This document shows positions 5,038 to 33,329 of a DNA stretch of 33,715 bases, piece by piece (positions within the stretch are counted from its first letter, which is position 1; every line of letters starts with the position of its first letter). The position numbers and the translations under genes are program-made. This DNA is from a bacterium (lineage in GTDB: Bacteria; UBA10199; 2-02-FULL-44-16; DYJF01), in the NCBI GenBank assembly GCA_041739675.1, contig JBGSNL010000087.1, forward strand, positions 1 through 33,715. Direction: 5' to 3'. The notes beneath the pieces are model-generated. The model worked only from the letters and a program-made list of their open reading frames with translations. It searched no databases and was not told where the DNA came from.

Positions 5038-5156
5038 GGCCCGCAACTACGGTGGTTTCAAACGGAATCTCTCCCCTGTTTTAAATCACAAAAAACAAAC
5101 TGCCTGTGGAGCCGGCGTCATGTCGATGCCTTACACAGGTGTATAAAGGATGTGAA

Positions 5157-6410
5157 ATGAAGAACCAATCGTTTGACCAACTGGGCCTGGCCCAGCCGAT
5201 CTTTCGCGCCGTCATGGCGGAAGGATACGAACGCCCGACGCCAATTCAGGCCGCGGCGATTCCGCACTTGATGGAAGGGCGCGATCTCATCGGATGCGCG
5301 CAGACGGGAACGGGCAAGACCGCAGCGTTCGCGCTGCCGATCTTGCACCGGCTCCATGCCGCGCACAAAAGGGCGCAGCCTCGCGGCGCACGGGTGCTGG
5401 TTTTGACCCCCACGCGCGAGCTTGCCTCGCAGGTGAGCGAGAGTTTCAAAACCTACGGCCGTCATCTTAACCTCACTCAGGCCCTTGTCTTCGGCGGCGT
5501 CGGCTACGCCCCTCAGGTGAAATCGATCTCCCGCGGCGCCGACGTTCTCGTGGCAACCCCGGGAAGGCTCTTAGATCTCATGAACAAGAGGCACGTTGTT
5601 CTTTCAGGGGTAGAGGTCTTCGTGCTGGACGAAGCCGACCGCATGCTGGATATGGGTTTTCTGCCCGATATCAGGAAAGTAATCGCGGCGCTGCCCAAAT
5701 CCCGCCAGACTCTGCTCTTTTCGGCGACCATGGCGCCGGATATTCTGAGACTCGCCGAGGGGATACTCAAGGATCCCGTGAACGTGGCGGTGACGCCGTC
5801 CGCGTCCACCGTGGAAACCGTTGAGGAGCACATCCTTTTCGTCGACGAAGGAAACAAGCGTGCGCTTCTTACGGAGCTTTTGAAATCGGCAGCAATCAGT
5901 CGCGCGCTCGTGTTCACGCGTACCAAGCACGGCGCGGACCGCCTTGTGAAACAGCTGGGGCAAGCCGCAGTGGATGCCAAGGCGATTCACGGCAACAAGT
6001 CGCAGAGCGTGCGCACCGCGGCGCTTGAGAGCTTCCGCAAGGGCCGTTGCCGCGTTCTCGTGGCGACGGATATCGCCGCGCGCGGTATCGACGTGGATGA
6101 CATCACGCACGTGATCAATTACGATCTTCCCAACGAACCGCAAAGCTACGTTCACCGCATCGGCCGCACGGCGCGCGCCGGCGCGAGCGGAATAGCAATT
6201 TCGTTTTGCGGCGTGACCGAGAAATCCTATCTCCACGATATCGAACGGCTTCTCAAGCGCTCAATTCCCGTGCGGCAGGATCATCCCTATCACTCTGAGA
6301 GCGCGGCCAATGCTACGGGCGGGAAGGGCGCAAGAAACGCTAAGAACCCCAATCGGGGGAAAGGGACCATGTCCCGCGCAAAACGCGCGCGTTTGCCCCG
6401 GAAATGGTAG
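5157..6410 (+). CDS. rhlE: DEAD-box ATP-dependent RNA helicase, RhlE-like
   Basis: Q-motif GYERPTPIQ, AQTGTGKT, PTRELA, DEAD, SAT, ARGID, HRIGRTARAG. SD AAAGGA precedes ATG 5157. Confidence 0.9.
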   Translation: MKNQSFDQLGLAQPIFRAVMAEGYERPTPIQAAAIPHLMEGRDLIGCAQTGTGKTAAFALPILHRLHAAHKRAQPRGARVLVLTPTRELASQVSESFKTYGRHLNLTQALVFGGVGYAPQVKSISRGADVLVATPGRLLDLMNKRHVVLSGVEVFVLDEADRMLDMGFLPDIRKVIAALPKSRQTLLFSATMAPDILRLAEGILKDPVNVAVTPSASTVETVEEHILFVDEGNKRALLTELLKSAAISRALVFTRTKHGADRLVKQLGQAAVDAKAIHGNKSQSVRTAALESFRKGRCRVLVATDIAARGIDVDDITHVINYDLPNEPQSYVHRIGRTARAGASGIAISFCGVTEKSYLHDIERLLKRSIPVRQDHPYHSESAANATGGKGARNAKNPNRGKGTMSRAKRARLPRKW

Positions 6411-6471: not shown

Positions 6472-7665
6472 ATGGCACTGGACATAGGCTGGAAAAAATT
6501 GCTCTCCGATTACGTCCCCGAGGCGGATATTTACGGCGGCGTTTATCTTGACGGCGACGGCAGTATGGAGACCGTGGATTTGAGCGGGGACGGCATCGTA
6601 AGCGAGCAGGAGGCAAAAAGCTTCTGCATTGCCAACCGCGATGGCCTGGCCCGTTTCATTCCGTTTCTTAAGGTCACGCAGGGTTTTACTGCCGACAATC
6701 CCATGCACACCCTCATCCTCTACGAATTCCAGACAATGGGATACAGCGATTTCGAAGTCGAGACTCTCTACAAAGAGCTGCGCGGCCTTCTTGAGGAGAT
6801 GAGGCGAGAAACCGAATATGAATCGGATCTGGTGCAAACCTTTCCGTTTCTCGGAGAAAATGGGGAGCTAACGCAATTCGACCGCATGTCGATTGTGCGG
6901 GAAGTGATGGTGAAAAGTGGAATTACCTTCGGCGGTGCTGAGCAGACGCTCTTCACCGGTCATTTTTTCAAACGTCATTGCAATTGTGCCACGGGAAGCT
7001 ATTCGCTCAATTTTTTTTCGCACGAATTGGGGCAAAAAGTCGATCTGGTGGAGCTCCGCGACCACGTCATCGCAAGGTCGACAGAGGGGCGAGTGAATAT
7101 CGATATGCGATACGGCGGCGCGTTGCATCCCGATTCTTACTACGAAAGACGCTACACTGTGAGTCCTTTCTCCGAAGAAATAGGAGTTTATCTCAAGAGC
7201 CTCAACGAAAGGGAGCTCAATTCGCTCTTTCTCATGGGGCTAGGCTCGGCGCTTGATTTGATCGACGATCGGTTACTCGATGCGGCGGAGATTTATGCAA
7301 TGTCCATCAGCGAGAATGTGTTCAATGTGACCTCTTGGAGCAATCTCGGTGCGCTGATGCTCAGGGTGGGCAAGCTTGACGAGGCAATTGAATATTCTCT
7401 GCAGGCGGTGGAGCTCGATCCCAATTTTGCGGAAGCATGTGTCCTGATTTCGCTCATCTATATAATGAAAGGCGAGAGGCAGGAGGCGCTTGAGTATCTG
7501 GAAAAAACGCTTGAGGTGGACGGCGAAAACGCCGCCGTCAGAAGCTTCTACGGGCGGCTCAAGGCGGTGACGGACGAGGAAATTGAAAACTCGTGGATAG
7601 AGTTTGTAAAGGAGAACGTCGAACTGCTGCACGAAATTGAACATTCATACGTCATTCGAGGCTGA
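6472..7665 (+). CDS. Hypothetical protein: EF-hand-like DxDG motifs, transglutaminase-like (SirB1-type) core, TPRs
   Basis: DGDGS...DLSGDG; NCATGSY...HELG...DHVIAR...VNID; C-terminal TPRs (WSNLGALMLRVGKLDEAIEYSLQAVELDP). Paralog of 15395..16948. Confidence 0.8.
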   Translation: MALDIGWKKLLSDYVPEADIYGGVYLDGDGSMETVDLSGDGIVSEQEAKSFCIANRDGLARFIPFLKVTQGFTADNPMHTLILYEFQTMGYSDFEVETLYKELRGLLEEMRRETEYESDLVQTFPFLGENGELTQFDRMSIVREVMVKSGITFGGAEQTLFTGHFFKRHCNCATGSYSLNFFSHELGQKVDLVELRDHVIARSTEGRVNIDMRYGGALHPDSYYERRYTVSPFSEEIGVYLKSLNERELNSLFLMGLGSALDLIDDRLLDAAEIYAMSISENVFNVTSWSNLGALMLRVGKLDEAIEYSLQAVELDPNFAEACVLISLIYIMKGERQEALEYLEKTLEVDGENAAVRSFYGRLKAVTDEEIENSWIEFVKENVELLHEIEHSYVIRG

Positions 7666-15394: not shown

Positions 15395-16948
15395 ATGCCG
15401 GGGACCACATTACCCATATCAAATCAGACGCCTGAGCCCAGCCACGGCGGGCAGGACCATCCGTATCCGGATTCGATACTTCCCTGCGGCTATTTCAATG
15501 ATTACTTCATTGAAAAACTGATCGTCAGCGATGAGGACGGTTCTCAACCTCTTGCGGGGAGAATATATTCGTCTTACTGGAACGAATTGATTCACGATGG
15601 ATTCAGAGATTTGTCTAATGAAGAAGCTTTTTTTATCGATCAGAACAAACAAGATTATTCGTTCATGGATGTATGTCAGATGAGGACGCGCTCCGGTTAT
15701 CATTTGTTTGCAGTGATGGAAAAACCTTCTGCAAACTTCATTGAGGTACCTTTGGCCATCGAGCCCGAGGGGTTGTTATATGGCATAATTCATTCCCCTT
15801 TTGCTGAATCAATTTCAAACGCCTATGTATTGATGAAACATCTCGATTGGCAGACTACATTTAATTTATTTCAAGGGTTTTACCCGACAGCATTGAGCCG
15901 GGATTATAAGGTTGTCGACTCCATGGACGTCGATTTCGACGGCAAGTTCGAGGCAAATGAGGAGGTGGACAAAGACGGCGATAGTGAGCTTTCCAATTCG
16001 GAGATCATCGATTTTTTCCTGAGAAACTGGAACGTCCTTGCCGAAAAAGCACCGTTCTTCAGTTTCGGCATTACAAACCCGATCCATAGGATAATTGCAA
16101 ACGAGCAGGAGACCCTGCATCTGACAGACGAGCAAGTGTCGGAGGTTTACTCGAAGTTGAGGGAGGTGCTGAATAATGTCCGACTGGCCGAGGCGAAGCG
16201 TGCGGCCTACAATATCCTGATTTCACCCTGGGAAATACTTGGAGATGTTCTTTCTCCCGGATTTTCGAGCAGCTTACTTCCTTTCAAGTCCATCGAGCTC
16301 TCAAAAGTTTCCATAATGCGTTCGGTCCGCGAGGCGATGATATCGTCGGGAATTTCTAATGTGCCACGCTCCTCCGATTCCTTTGTCCGGAGTATTCTCG
16401 ATGGGCAGTTTGATTGTGACAGCGGCTCATACGTTTTGTTGGCGATAGCACATGAGTTGGGATGGCCCGTACGCACTGTCCTTTTTCCGGGAAACGAAGA
16501 GTCCAATTACACGAATCATATGTTTACCAGATGGATAAATGAGGACGGAAGTTATGTAAATTACGATATTGATGATGATTCATCGATACATGATTTTAAA
16601 TATTTAGCCGTGGCAGACTATGAAGCATTGAGTGCGGGCCTCTATTTTCATAACATGACCGATTCAGAGATCTACGCGCTCGATTACTATGTCATAGCCG
16701 ATCTGTCAGATAACGAAATCGAAGCTCTTAATTCGGCGTTGGCCTATGACCCATATCTTACTCTTGCGTTGAGAGATAGGGCAAGGTTGGAATTTTTGAA
16801 TGACGATTTGGGTGGAGCATTGTGGGATTATATGGCGTTGCTATCCATAAATCCCAACGACAGTGATGGGACAAGAGGGATTCTTATGTTGTCCCATCGT
16901 CTCTTGGAAGTTGGTTGGAGTGTTCTGGAAGGTCTATTCAATTGGTAG
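15395..16948 (+). CDS. Hypothetical protein: N-terminal extension, EF-hand-like motifs, transglutaminase-like core, TPR
   Basis: DVDFDG...DKDGD; FDCDSGSY...HELGWP...NHMFTRW...VNYD; C-terminal TPR-like region. Paralog of 6472..7665 and visibly more AT-rich than its neighbours. Confidence 0.8.
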   Translation: MPGTTLPISNQTPEPSHGGQDHPYPDSILPCGYFNDYFIEKLIVSDEDGSQPLAGRIYSSYWNELIHDGFRDLSNEEAFFIDQNKQDYSFMDVCQMRTRSGYHLFAVMEKPSANFIEVPLAIEPEGLLYGIIHSPFAESISNAYVLMKHLDWQTTFNLFQGFYPTALSRDYKVVDSMDVDFDGKFEANEEVDKDGDSELSNSEIIDFFLRNWNVLAEKAPFFSFGITNPIHRIIANEQETLHLTDEQVSEVYSKLREVLNNVRLAEAKRAAYNILISPWEILGDVLSPGFSSSLLPFKSIELSKVSIMRSVREAMISSGISNVPRSSDSFVRSILDGQFDCDSGSYVLLAIAHELGWPVRTVLFPGNEESNYTNHMFTRWINEDGSYVNYDIDDDSSIHDFKYLAVADYEALSAGLYFHNMTDSEIYALDYYVIADLSDNEIEALNSALAYDPYLTLALRDRARLEFLNDDLGGALWDYMALLSINPNDSDGTRGILMLSHRLLEVGWSVLEGLFNW

Positions 16949-28075: not shown

Positions 28076-28729
28076 CTATAAGGTGCGCTGGTATTTTTGG
28101 TAATAGATCGTTCTGCCCATGTTGATCCACTTATTCGCGAAAAAGGTGGGGTAAGCGTCGTCGGAGCGGTTCGTCATGACTTCAGGATAGCATGTTTCAA
28201 GAAGGGCGATCGCACCGATTTCATCGGCCACGGCTTCGGCATATGGCTTGTGGTCCGTCGTAAAATTTAGATTTCCATAAAATTTTAAGACGTGGCAGCA
28301 GTCCTCCAGAAAATCCCGCGACAGCACCCTATTTTTTTCATGGCGGCGTTTGGGCCACGGATCGGGAAAATTGACGTAGATAGCATCAACTGAATTTTCG
28401 CCGAAAAATCTGGGAAGCGCGCATCTGGCGTCGTCCTGAATAACCGTAATGTTTTTCAGTCCGCGGCTCTCGACACGGCTTATGAGCTTATCGACTCTCT
28501 TTCTCTTGATCTCAATTCCCACTACCGACTTGTCGGGATTCGTCTCCGCCAGATGAAAAAGAAAATCCCCGCGCCCCGGCCCGACCTCGACAATAATGGG
28601 GGGGACACTTCTCATTTTCGCATGGGGATCAGGTGAACAGGAGAAGTGTCCCCCTCCTGCGGCCGGATAGACAAAAGGCGTTCTGCTTATCTCGCCCGCC
28701 GGTAGCTGTATATACTTCAGTGCCGCCAT
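28076..28729 (-). CDS. trmB: tRNA (guanine-N7)-methyltransferase
   Basis: VEVGPGRGDFL, GIEI, NFPDPWPKRRHEKNR, TD..PY. Start at ATG 28729. Confidence 0.93.
   Translation of the reverse strand: MAALKYIQLPAGEISRTPFVYPAAGGGHFSCSPDPHAKMRSVPPIIVEVGPGRGDFLFHLAETNPDKSVVGIEIKRKRVDKLISRVESRGLKNITVIQDDARCALPRFFGENSVDAIYVNFPDPWPKRRHEKNRVLSRDFLEDCCHVLKFYGNLNFTTDHKPYAEAVADEIGAIALLETCYPEVMTNRSDDAYPTFFANKWINMGRTIYYQKYQRTL
28601..28653. repeat. 53-bp palindromic element, family A, copy 2, in frame within trmB
   Basis: Same terminal IRs as 589..641; translated as GHFSCSPDPHAKMRSVP. Confidence 0.9.
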
Positions 28730-28836
28730 GACGCACACATATATCAATGGGGGACGATTTGAAACAGGAAAAATGCGCCGGAAAAGGCTTGCACGCCGCG
28801 CTCGGAGAGAGATATACGCATTTGCGAGACATAGTC

Positions 28837-31623
28837 ATGATCCGCGTTTTGCCCACAATCAATCTCGCTTCCCAGATGGCAGGCATGAGCCGATTGGCCG
28901 CTTTCCATGCGACAGTGTTTCATCGGGTTCGCCTTCCTGTGAGACGGAATATACGTCCGCCTCTCCCTCGGGTTGTTCACGAACTCCGCTATTCACCTTC
29001 GCCGGGCAGTTTCGCCCTTGCTCGGCGCGACATTAAAAGGCCGACTGAAGACGCACGTCCTAGTCTCGATCGTCAGGTTGTCCGATTTATTGACTTGAAT
29101 CAGCCGCTGACATCAGAGGCGTTTGTTAATGCAGGGTTTTCAAACCCCACAAAGGCAATTCTGATGGCCGACGGTGCTTATGATGATGGGGTATTGTTGT
29201 TCGATCCTGCGAAGACCTTTATTGCGTCGGCGCTGATGTTCGTGGATTCAATTTCCGCCTCGATTTCCCATATCGCCTTGAAGTACGGCTCGCGCGGTCT
29301 TGAGCATTACCATTACACATATCATCCGATGGAGGAGATGCGCATTCAGGCGGAGATCGACGGCTTGAGAGTTGCCGATGAAGCATTAGGTCACCGAAGA
29401 ATACCTCACATCTCTCGTGGCGCGCTCATAAGGATCATCGAGCAGATCGCGAAGGCATACGGCCTGCCTCATCCTCGACTTCTTACGGGCGACGATTTCA
29501 AGCTCAAGTTGGCTGGTTGGAACACTCAGGTGCAGGGTCTGTATAAGTTCTTTTGGAAGCTTCTTTCTCAAGAACAGGGCGCGGGCCGGATCGTCGACTT
29601 CATGCTTGACCGCTTGGGTGTCGAGCGATTGGAGGAATTGCCGCCTCCGGTTCAGGCCAGATTCTTGGGGGCGGGACCATCAAGGATCAATTGGAAATTT
29701 GTCGGACCTGAAGTGAAGGCGTACCTCCTTTCCCGACTGGCCGAAGAGGCCGGTGTCGTGCATCCGCGATTCTTGACCAGCGATCATTTCAGGGAGCTCA
29801 AGATAGAAGAGCTGGGTTCCAAGCTGATCGGCTTATATGATATTTACGTTAAGCGGGTCAAAGAGCCCGGTAAGGCAGTGAAAGCCATGCTCGACGACGC
29901 CGGCATTGAGCCGTTTGAGAGCCTGCCGTGGGATGTGCAACTCGAGGGTTTCCGTCAACGCGACAACATCAAATGGGCACTGGTGCCCGCAACTACACAG
30001 CTCAAGTTGCTGGAGATGGCGAAGGATTTGATGTCGGTCAAGAACGGTTTGAAGTGTCCGCATCTTCGAGCCCTTATCACTGATGAATTGAAGGTTTTGA
30101 TAATCAAGGAAATAAAGGTGGGTCTCGGTGGATTGCACGACTATTACAGGCGGAGGATGCCGGAAGATTATGAAGGCACTGTCCTTGATTTCATGCTCGA
30201 TCAGCTGGGTGTGGAGAAATTTGAGAACCTTCCGTATGAGCTGCAGTGCTCGTGTTTGAGGTACGATCAAAACCGCCAATGGGACAGGGTGCCCGCACCT
30301 TTGATCCTGAAATTCATGGAAAGGTTGCGGGAAATACTCGGTCTGCCCCACGTGAGATTCATTTCCGGCCAACAGATGCAAAGAACCGTAATACCGGAGA
30401 TAGGCCAGTCTCTTGGCGGGCTTTACACTCATTTTCGCCTGAAGAGAATGGCGGACGATAAGAGGGAGATTGTCGATATCATATTGGATTATGCCGGCGC
30501 CCCAAGATTCGACGAGATGCCGTTTGCGTTGCAGCTCCAGTGGACCCAGCGTCCGGTCGGAAAGCTCACCAGCTGGCGTCGAGTCTCCGACGCGGTGATT
30601 CTTCATTATCTGCGGGAGCTGATGAGAGGCGCGCGCGCAAGAACCTCCGACGATCTCGTGGCGGGAGATTTCACTTTGAGAGTGGGAGGGAGGGAGCGGG
30701 GATTGATCGGTCTGTATAACTATCTTTCTGGCACAAGAGCGGAACTGGGTGTGCCTGAGAGGACGATCGACTGGGCCTTCTCGCACTATGGGGTGGATGT
30801 GCAGTTTGCGATCGAGGCAAAGCGCATGAGTGGGGGAAGAACAATGCTGGACCCGCGAGAAAAGCTGTTTTTGATTGAGATGGCGAAGATGGGCGACAGA
30901 ACCGCAATGGATCACCTGGTCTATTTTTATGAGCCGCTGCTAAGGAGCATAGTGCACAGCGTACTATCGATGATGCCTAGGTCGCAATTCACTGCCGGCG
31001 AGCTTCTCCAGCTTGGACGCATTGAATTCGCCCACCTGGTGGAGCTTTACGATCCTGCGATTGCCAGCCTTGAAACGTACGTGAAAGTATCGCTTTCATT
31101 ACGTCTCAAGAATGCGATTAGGCGGGACAGTGGGGATGTGCACGTGCCGGCGAGTTATCTGGGGTTCATGCTAAGAGTCGGCAAGATTAGCAGCGAATTG
31201 GCGGCGAAACTGGGCCGCTGGCCGACAGAAGTGGAATTAGCCGAAGAACTCGGCGTGAAAGTCGACAAGCTCATGTCGATGCGTGCGCTGCGTTCTACGC
31301 AAATCTCTCTATTTTCGCCGCCGGCGGGCGGAGATGATGAGCGAACGTATGAGGACGTGATAGCGGATGAGCGAGCGGTTCGTCCGGACATCGGGCACCC
31401 CGTTGCGGATATGAGAGAATTGATCGAGCGTGCAATAAATGGTTCGGGACTCGGTGAGAGAGAGAAATTTATTCTGCGGCAAAGCAGTTTCGAAGGTCAT
31501 GGACTCGAGGAGATCGGCCGGATGGTTGATTTGTGCGGAGAAAGGGTGAGGCAAGTAATTGTAATTGCCATGAGAAAGATTGCCGAGGGCCCCTACGCCG
31601 AGATTTTGAAAGAGCTGCTCTGA
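28837..31623 (+). CDS. Giant sigma70-family RNA polymerase sigma factor-like protein with N-terminal tandem repeats (start uncertain; ORF open from 28747)
   Basis: The C-terminal ~260 aa (from 30844) carry sigma regions 1.2/2 (AKMGDRTAMDHLV...ELLQLG...YD...TY), 3 (LGRWPTEVELAEELG...ISL) and 4 (LGEREKFIL...LEEIGRMVDLCGERVRQV...AMRKI). Five 94-102 aa repeats lie upstream. Confidence 0.85.
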   Translation: MIRVLPTINLASQMAGMSRLAAFHATVFHRVRLPVRRNIRPPLPRVVHELRYSPSPGSFALARRDIKRPTEDARPSLDRQVVRFIDLNQPLTSEAFVNAGFSNPTKAILMADGAYDDGVLLFDPAKTFIASALMFVDSISASISHIALKYGSRGLEHYHYTYHPMEEMRIQAEIDGLRVADEALGHRRIPHISRGALIRIIEQIAKAYGLPHPRLLTGDDFKLKLAGWNTQVQGLYKFFWKLLSQEQGAGRIVDFMLDRLGVERLEELPPPVQARFLGAGPSRINWKFVGPEVKAYLLSRLAEEAGVVHPRFLTSDHFRELKIEELGSKLIGLYDIYVKRVKEPGKAVKAMLDDAGIEPFESLPWDVQLEGFRQRDNIKWALVPATTQLKLLEMAKDLMSVKNGLKCPHLRALITDELKVLIIKEIKVGLGGLHDYYRRRMPEDYEGTVLDFMLDQLGVEKFENLPYELQCSCLRYDQNRQWDRVPAPLILKFMERLREILGLPHVRFISGQQMQRTVIPEIGQSLGGLYTHFRLKRMADDKREIVDIILDYAGAPRFDEMPFALQLQWTQRPVGKLTSWRRVSDAVILHYLRELMRGARARTSDDLVAGDFTLRVGGRERGLIGLYNYLSGTRAELGVPERTIDWAFSHYGVDVQFAIEAKRMSGGRTMLDPREKLFLIEMAKMGDRTAMDHLVYFYEPLLRSIVHSVLSMMPRSQFTAGELLQLGRIEFAHLVELYDPAIASLETYVKVSLSLRLKNAIRRDSGDVHVPASYLGFMLRVGKISSELAAKLGRWPTEVELAEELGVKVDKLMSMRALRSTQISLFSPPAGGDDERTYEDVIADERAVRPDIGHPVADMRELIERAINGSGLGEREKFILRQSSFEGHGLEEIGRMVDLCGERVRQVIVIAMRKIAEGPYAEILKELL

Positions 31624-32393
31624 TCCTTCAATTCAATGTATAAGAGTGTTCCGCCGACGACCATGGGGGCCGCAAAAATGAGGTTGAAGAAGGGAATGAC
31701 GAAGGCGGAGCCGAGACCGATCATGGCCCACTTGTTCTCAAGGCCGAATCTGACCCGTTCGCGGAAGGGAAGGACCTTTCTTCCCATCGGAAGATCGGCG
31801 TAGGCAAATCCCAGATCCCATGCGCCGAAGGTCAAGGTGAGTGCGACATAAAGAGGTCCTCCGGCAACGGGGATGACGTTCAAGACAAATAGCACGACCG
31901 GTATTGAAAGCAGGATTGCCGCCTTGATCGTTTCAATTCTTATCGTGCGCACAAGATCGGTGGCGAATTTTTTCCATGAGAAGGGGGGCGGTTCGGTTCC
32001 GGCGACCAAGGTTTCAACACGTTCGGAAAGTGCGTCGTTGAACGGCGAGGCGACGATAAGGCCCAAGACATAAGAGACGATTAAGAGAAGAACCAGAGTT
32101 AAGATTACGATTAAGATTTGGAATAAAAGATTAAGAATCCAGAGAAGGGCGTCTGCGAGGTGCAGATACCACGCCGTAGGATTTTCGATATCGAGATGGC
32201 CGAGATGAGCGGTGAGCCAGCCGTATATATCGCCGTAATAATGAACAAACGCAAAGATCATGATTACGAGCAGGGCCAAATTTATAAGAGTGGGAAGAAT
32301 GGCCCACTTCCAGAGCTTGGGGTGCGAAGCCAGATATGTGAAGCCTTCCACGAGACAGCCAAACCCCTTGAAAAATTCCTTCATCCTAGACAT
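31593..32393 (-). CDS. EI24/CysZ-like membrane protein
   Basis: LWKWAILPTLIN, IVASPFNDALSERVE, IPFFNL...VVGGTLLY. Start chosen after TTGCTT-N17-TATGAA. Confidence 0.88.
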   Translation of the reverse strand: MSRMKEFFKGFGCLVEGFTYLASHPKLWKWAILPTLINLALLVIMIFAFVHYYGDIYGWLTAHLGHLDIENPTAWYLHLADALLWILNLLFQILIVILTLVLLLIVSYVLGLIVASPFNDALSERVETLVAGTEPPPFSWKKFATDLVRTIRIETIKAAILLSIPVVLFVLNVIPVAGGPLYVALTLTFGAWDLGFAYADLPMGRKVLPFRERVRFGLENKWAMIGLGSAFVIPFFNLIFAAPMVVGGTLLYIELKDQSSSFKISA

Positions 32394-32429
32394 ACCGGTC
32401 TTCATAGAGTAAATTATGACGAAAAGCAA

Positions 32430-33329
32430 ATGGCTAACAGTTTCGACAATTCGGTCGACAACTATATCATGCATCTCCGCGTTGAGAGGCATCTCTCGGC
32501 GAAGACTGTTGAGGCGTATTCGCACGATCTCAGGCGTTTTTCCGAGTTCGTAGGCAAAAAGGGAGCCGCGTTGCCGGGCGATGTCAGCGAACCGCATGTC
32601 CTTTCATTTTTAGTCCTCCTTCATCGTGAAAAAATCGGAAGTCGAAGCGTGGCGCGCTACCTCTCGGCGCTTCGCGGTTTTTTCAAATTTCTCATCAAGG
32701 AAAAGGAGATCAAAAACGATCCTATCGCAAAGATCGAATCGCCGGCGCGCTGGCAGAAGCTTCCCAAATTCCTGACGCTCTCCGATGTCGATTCGCTTCT
32801 GGCCCAGCCCGATAAAAAAACCGACTTGGGGCTTCGCGATCATGCGATCATTCAGGTCATGTATGCGTCGGGCCTTAGAATCTCCGAGCTTGCGGGTTTG
32901 ACCCTTGAGCGGCTCAATTTGCAGCAGGGGTTCGTGATCATAATGGGCAAGGGGTCGAAGGAGCGCCTGGTCCCCGTGGGAAGATCGGCGCTCGATGCCG
33001 TGAATGAATATCTGGGTAGCGCGCGGCCCCGCTTGACGAAGGGCAGGTTGAGCGATCATCTCTTTGTTGGAAGGGAAGGAGAGGGGCTTTCGCGCCAGAG
33101 GCTCTGGGAGATAATCAAGGCCAATGCCAAAAAAGCGGGAATCAAAATAAACGTGACGCCGCACATGCTCCGCCACTCATTCGCCACCCATCTTCTGGAG
33201 CGAGGCGCCGATCTCAGGAGCGTCCAAACGATGTTGGGCCACGCCGACATCGCCACAACGCAAATTTACACCCACGTCACGACGAAACACCTGCAAGACC
33301 TCTACAAAAAATTTCACCCGCGCGCTTAA
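32430..33329 (+). CDS. xerD: Site-specific tyrosine recombinase XerD
   Basis: RD.A....YASGLRISEL, GKGSKERLVP, TPHMLRHSFATHLL, LGHADIATTQIYTHV, HPRA. Start at ATG 32430. Confidence 0.93.
   Translation: MANSFDNSVDNYIMHLRVERHLSAKTVEAYSHDLRRFSEFVGKKGAALPGDVSEPHVLSFLVLLHREKIGSRSVARYLSALRGFFKFLIKEKEIKNDPIAKIESPARWQKLPKFLTLSDVDSLLAQPDKKTDLGLRDHAIIQVMYASGLRISELAGLTLERLNLQQGFVIIMGKGSKERLVPVGRSALDAVNEYLGSARPRLTKGRLSDHLFVGREGEGLSRQRLWEIIKANAKKAGIKINVTPHMLRHSFATHLLERGADLRSVQTMLGHADIATTQIYTHVTTKHLQDLYKKFHPRA

Follow-up and report, generated by a model that had tools for sequence, protein, structure and literature searches.

Here we report the analysis of a gene encoding a 928-aa sigma70-type protein, located on the forward strand at positions 28837..31623 of the 33,715-nucleotide contig JBGSNL010000087.1 (hereafter, the window) from a 1.9-Mb bacterial genome that is 94.6% complete (GCA_041739675.1; G000). 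The protein begins with an N-terminal module (residues 8-155; 28858..29301) comprising an acid-free leader, a low-confidence linker and a helical domain, followed by a conserved cap helix with a Tyr-His-Pro motif (29302..29394) and five repeats of ~95 aa that span residues 186-660. Repeats 1 to 5 occupy positions 29395..29676, 29686..29964, 29968..30270, 30274..30555, and 30568..30816, respectively; conservation is highest in repeat 3, with a mean pairwise identity of 0.48, and repeat 5 is degenerate and lacks its last helix. The C-terminal sigma70 module is composed of the region 1.2/2 fold (30832..31128), region 3 with its 3.0 helix-turn-helix (HTH) and 3.2 finger (31174..31386), and an RpoD-like region 4 HTH (31447..31581). 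This layout confirms the initial annotation, which had described a long N-terminal part with five tandem repeats, the last of them degenerate, fused to a sigma domain; its authors overlooked the separate N-terminal module, the wear of the residues for promoter melting, and the type III secretion genes described below. The open reading frame (ORF) is intact and is not an assembly fusion of two genes, a possibility that had been raised, because eight full-length homologs with 42-63% identity were found.

The identity of the sigma module was established by comparison with the known sigma families. Region 4 scored over the PF04545 cut-off and was matched in nine of nine members of the A1 set at E<=0.1, and the region 2 domain fold is also present. 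The best NCBIfam score was obtained with the RpoD C-terminal model (61.7 bits against a cut-off of 354), while none of the named subfamilies (RpoS, FliA/WhiG, SigB/F/G, RpoH) exceeded its cut-off among the 25 NCBIfam families listed, which rules out a named group 2 or group 3 sigma. A primary (group 1) sigma was rejected on the low RpoD score, the lack of region 1.1 and the non-conserved region (NCR), the loss of the Trp433-Trp434 dyad in all 18 family members compared, and the location of the true RpoD gene on another contig (C38); the presence of region 3 excludes an extracytoplasmic function (ECF, group 4) sigma. The nearest non-family sigma is an RpoD-type gene both in the host's own phylum and in a second, Margulisbacteria-labelled phylum, and the branches of the family greatly exceed RpoD branches in length. 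As judged from these sequence comparisons, the 928-aa protein is a fast-evolving member of the sigma70 family, closest to RpoD and outside every named subfamily. Other sigma genes of the host genome encode RpoD, an RpoH-like protein, a FliA-like fragment, and one further protein with region 2.

We compared the 18 family members with the RpoD protein of the host genome, using a residue numbering (403-437 and 584-588) that we presume to be correct. In region 2.2, the core-binding part of sigma factors, equivalents of Leu404 and Gln406 are present in all 18 proteins (Leu723 and Gln725 of the 928-aa protein are invariant) and Asp or Glu occurs at position 403 in 17, while Glu407 is kept in one. 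On the promoter-facing side, Tyr430 is kept in 16 and Thr429 in 14 of the 18, and Trp433, Trp434 and Gln437 in none; the protein under study follows this pattern, retaining the Tyr430 equivalent and lacking the last three. Arg586, Arg588 and Arg584 of region 4 are retained in 16, 11 and 7 proteins, respectively. PMC10911233 assigns F427, Y430, W433, and W434 to the melting pocket and connects the absence of these residues with strict promoter requirements. Nine of the 18 homologs have lost region 3.0 while keeping the 3.2 finger, and its presence or absence changed six times on the tree (5-7 times in bootstraps, with at least three changes forced), as counted with the region 3.0 columns themselves left in the underlying alignment. 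Region 2, with an identity of 0.34, is the least conserved folded part of the sigma module after region 3. The repeats and the sigma module are alike under purifying selection, with synonymous divergence (dS) near saturation in most pairs. Based on this residue pattern, the region 3.0 losses and the selection, the polymerase-facing parts of the protein look held and its promoter-facing parts look relaxed.

The repeat, which the initial annotation did not recognize, indeed appears to be undescribed. When repeat 2 was modelled alone (pLDDT 95.4, pTM 0.86), it folded into two helices, a short hairpin and three further helices; this predicted fold had no match among solved structures, its structural matches to HTH-like domains being weak, and an ankyrin repeat was ruled out. 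Thus, the repeat has an apparently new fold according to the model. One and the same RpoD-like sigma is preceded by 0, 1, 3, 4 or 5 copies, which answers in the affirmative the earlier question of whether repeat and sigma co-occur at variable copy number, and the repeat is also fused to superfamily 1 (SF1) helicases and other sigma-like tails or stands alone, a distribution by which it is a mobile module. The cap helix is found in all repeat-bearing sigma members complete at the N-terminus and is absent from the two repeat-less ones; since the repeat-less proteins stay intact, the repeats are optional in the sigma family. The proposal that they form a modular DNA-reading array was supported in part: the fusion partners and the weak HTH-like matches make a role in nucleic-acid binding plausible, but a programmable array of near-identical, interchangeable units of the TALE or PPR type is ruled out, because units within the 928-aa protein are 19-32% identical, against 37-70% for the equivalent unit across homologs. 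Saganbacteria-type repeat proteins (P0025, P0026, P0028, P0034; loci L054 and L055) share, by eye, another N-terminal domain; at the other end they have either an SF1 helicase or no recognizable domain. In Omnitrophota, the 5714-residue protein P0043 carries three repeat units followed by a sigma-region-2-like stretch (3.7 bits, not significant), as well as a separate sigma domain near its end (coordinates noted: residues 1992-2400 and 5112-5297).

The N-terminal module gave 13 matches in 7 of the 22 genomes of the host's order, comprising seven repeat-sigmas, two repeat-less sigmas and four small proteins (roughly 200-270 aa) whose hydrophobic tails bear no resemblance to one another. A profile built without the four tailed proteins still scored them at 21-52 bits, compared with at most 8.6 bits for shuffled sequences. 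The module was found in none of the 146 genomes of the Margulisbacteria-labelled phylum, whose family members carry a leader of ~15 residues instead, and it thus appears to be confined to the host's own order; no second protein with the module was found in the host genome. The first acidic residue of the 928-aa protein lies at position 49, which is equalled by 1.3% of 1345 crude ORFs, and among 12 leaders inspected, 10 are free of acidic residues for at least 21 positions and two contain one within nine positions. The tailed proteins (L098:1150-1992(-), L099:1306-1965(-), L100:1273-1995(-), and L095:1420-2277(+)), which are candidate membrane-inserting exported proteins, do not track the sigma genes: genome G008 encodes one without a family sigma, and G000, G001, G007 and G011 show the reverse. 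In a tandem gene pair of G001 (L012:10388-15897), the 5' module (dS 0.46-0.78) is far more alike than the remainder, repeats and sigma included (dS 1.0-1.5), which points to gene conversion or to a front end that was swapped recently.

Six of the 93 genomes of the host's phylum, all from one order, carry the repeat, as do 8 of the 146 from the Margulisbacteria-labelled phylum, and four of these 8 also have the family sigma; further carriers are labelled WOR-1, Saganbacteria and Omnitrophota, together with one record named Methanoperedens. In a quick tree built on 208 sigma columns and rooted with an RpoD outgroup, the ten members from the host's order form one group (SH-aLRT 84) nested inside other members, which fits gene transfer into this order, and in the whole-protein tree the eight five-repeat members are grouped with 100/99 support. 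The family genes are patchy, duplicated (tandem pairs occur in G001 and at L021) and position-free, and their flanking genes are housekeeping ones that differ between genera. In the window, the gene is flanked by a divergent gene for a TrmB-type tRNA methyltransferase (28076..28747, reverse strand), which is syntenic in G001 and lies near a repeat-less copy in G020, and by a convergent gene for a CysZ/EI24 family membrane protein (31593..32597, reverse strand) with an ORF at the equivalent place in G001. Elsewhere in the window, the hypothetical genes at 6472-7665 and 15395-16948 are paralogs that share 30% identity across 189 residues (E 4e-14); the product of the former ends in TPR repeats, and the latter has no Pfam match and lies in a lower-GC stretch.

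A search aimed at export-apparatus genes identified models for SctV, SctR and SctN over cut-off in the host genome, along with SctS-, SctT- and SctL-like genes on contig C87. The SctV gene scored 792 bits (cut-off 692), while its score with the FlhA model, 692 bits, is below the cut-off of 772; the host encodes a non-flagellar type III secretion system. The cluster lies at C87:374-9482 (L080) and C31:11468-13624 (L077) with a FliA-like sigma gene at the contig end, and sctV is separate from it, adjoining genes with FHA domains. Around an FHA-domain gene there are four short, mutually similar ORFs (C31:4080-7836), which resemble what we take to be four-helix-bundle 'intervening sequence' proteins. 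Flagellin was found in none of 11 repeat-carrying genomes tested (the host and ten others). Among the 93 genomes of the host's phylum, 91 have a SctV/FlhA gene, and so have 135 of the 146 from the Margulisbacteria-labelled phylum; no match was found in the carrier G011 (96% complete), and in four Margulisbacteria-labelled carriers the export gene scores nearer FlhA than SctV. In five genomes of the latter phylum (G093, G209, G229, G235, and G236), a FlhA-like export gene is present and flagellin was not found, and this combination is possibly a flagellum-derived export system.

We favour, at a probability of about 0.4, an accessory sigma factor that acts in its own cell, binding the core polymerase and being aimed by a nucleic-acid-binding repeat array. 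Based on the observed fold and residues, the sigma module would likely bind the core RNA polymerase of its own cell; the fusion partners suggest that the five-repeat array likely grips nucleic acid, and it would help to direct a sigma that has itself lost much of its hold on the promoter. We infer that sigma and array together would likely initiate transcription from a limited number of stringent promoters, with the repeats acting like an upstream activator tethered to the sigma. As a working precedent for a repeat-aimed sigma we draw on dCas12f-sigmaE, for which the consulted parts of PMC13472631 and 10.1101/2025.06.10.658880 describe RNA-guided transcription with an attached module supplanting -35 recognition. 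It serves as a model in that promoter recognition by the sigma is largely replaced by an attached targeting module, but there a separate RNA-guided protein works with an ECF sigma, whereas here the putative targeting is by a fused protein repeat. What weighs against the accessory sigma is the front end: its being swapped and common to several proteins, together with the patchiness of the genes, is better accounted for by export, and a swappable front end on unrelated proteins leaves room for injection into other bacteria.

The strongest competitor is an exported effector in which the N-terminal module would serve as the tag for type III export and the sigma would bind the RNA polymerase of a bacterial host or prey to redirect or jam transcription, a reading that we consider possible though doubtful. 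The non-flagellar secretion genes, the missing flagellin, the export gene in both phyla that share the family, the module on unrelated cargoes in one phylum and its absence from the other, the late first acidic residue, and the patchy, duplicated, position-free genes all speak for it; but nearly every genome of both phyla has the export gene, which leaves its co-occurrence with the family without contrast, and the carrier without SctV/FlhA, the FlhA-like genes of four other carriers, the two leaders with early acidic residues, and the lack of a second module protein in the host count against it. A fuller version, which we hold tentatively, is that uncultured groundwater-type bacteria with a flagellin-less type III system may inject an RpoD-derived, repeat-aimed sigma into a bacterial host or prey and reprogram its polymerase, the gene having crossed phyla and gained the export module of its new owner. 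An auto-inhibited pro-sigma, in which the N-terminal module and repeats, as a tethered anti-sigma or sensor, keep the sigma masked until its release by ligand binding or proteolytic cleavage, would agree with the lack of a separate anti-sigma gene beside any inspected locus and with the joint loss of cap helix and repeats, and membrane-tailed module proteins could tether partners; it is improbable, as the same type of repeat occurs on helicases and alone, an intact sigma is found with anywhere between 0 and 5 copies, and the tailed proteins fail to track the sigma. No protease gene neighbours the sigma gene within the window. Least probable is a non-initiating sink that docks on core polymerase, cannot open promoters, and parks or starves polymerase for dormancy or as a brake. 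The invariant core-facing and variable promoter-facing residues, the low conservation of region 2 and the long branches would suit such a sink, but Tyr430 and Thr429 persist under purifying selection, together with the 3.2 finger and region 4, and functional alternative sigmas can likewise lack the melting residues, as stated in the part of PMC10911233 consulted.

Among known systems, the sigma70 groups 1-3 (RpoD, RpoS, SigB/FliA) share the region 1.2/2 fold and regions 3 and 4, the RpoD type being nearest, and differ in the subfamily scores, region 1.1/NCR, the Trp dyad, and the ~660 extra residues of unknown module and repeats. MzaA is likewise a large sigma70-type protein (~700-aa model) with an N-terminal ankyrin-repeat part. 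Membership in the mzaABCDE system was rejected: the MzaA model gave 30 bits against a cut-off of 800, in the sigma part only, PADLOC gave no match for the protein (P0001), its repeat is not ankyrin, and the four neighbours scanned included no mza genes, the only match being of methyltransferase type on trmB. The system is described as anti-phage in the accessible part of 10.1101/2022.06.16.496414. Pro-sigmaK, pro-sigmaE and ECF sigmas with fused extensions also carry extra sequence that could regulate the sigma; these extensions are short propeptides or known C-terminal domains, and no dedicated protease gene adjoins the gene studied here. Type III effector families with a common N-terminal translocation domain resemble the present family in placing one N-terminal module on unrelated cargoes with no evident Sec signal, in their patchy, duplicated genes, and in the injectisome-type export genes of the genome, but here secretion is putative and it is a bacterial sigma that would be carried, which would make a bacterium the target of export; we know of no sigma factor that is a type III secretion cargo. 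No description of the repeat-sigma family was found in the literature searched, and the portion of the Omnitrophota giant-gene preprint available to us (10.1101/2023.11.21.568195) does not mention sigma. The protein thus appears to represent a real family variant of the sigma70 kind with an apparently new repeat fold, which would be categorically new if exported.

The natural variants with 0, 1, 3, 4 or 5 repeats and with region 3.0 deleted make the question directly testable. If the protein is exported, it would represent a sigma factor passed from one bacterium to another; for the type III systems present in almost all genomes of two uncultured phyla, it would supply a first cargo open to testing as well as a candidate export tag. 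If it is an accessory sigma of its own cell, it would reveal a new route to promoter choice, via a fused repeat domain whose fold is apparently new, and a new nucleic-acid-binding module with tunable copy number that serves helicases too.
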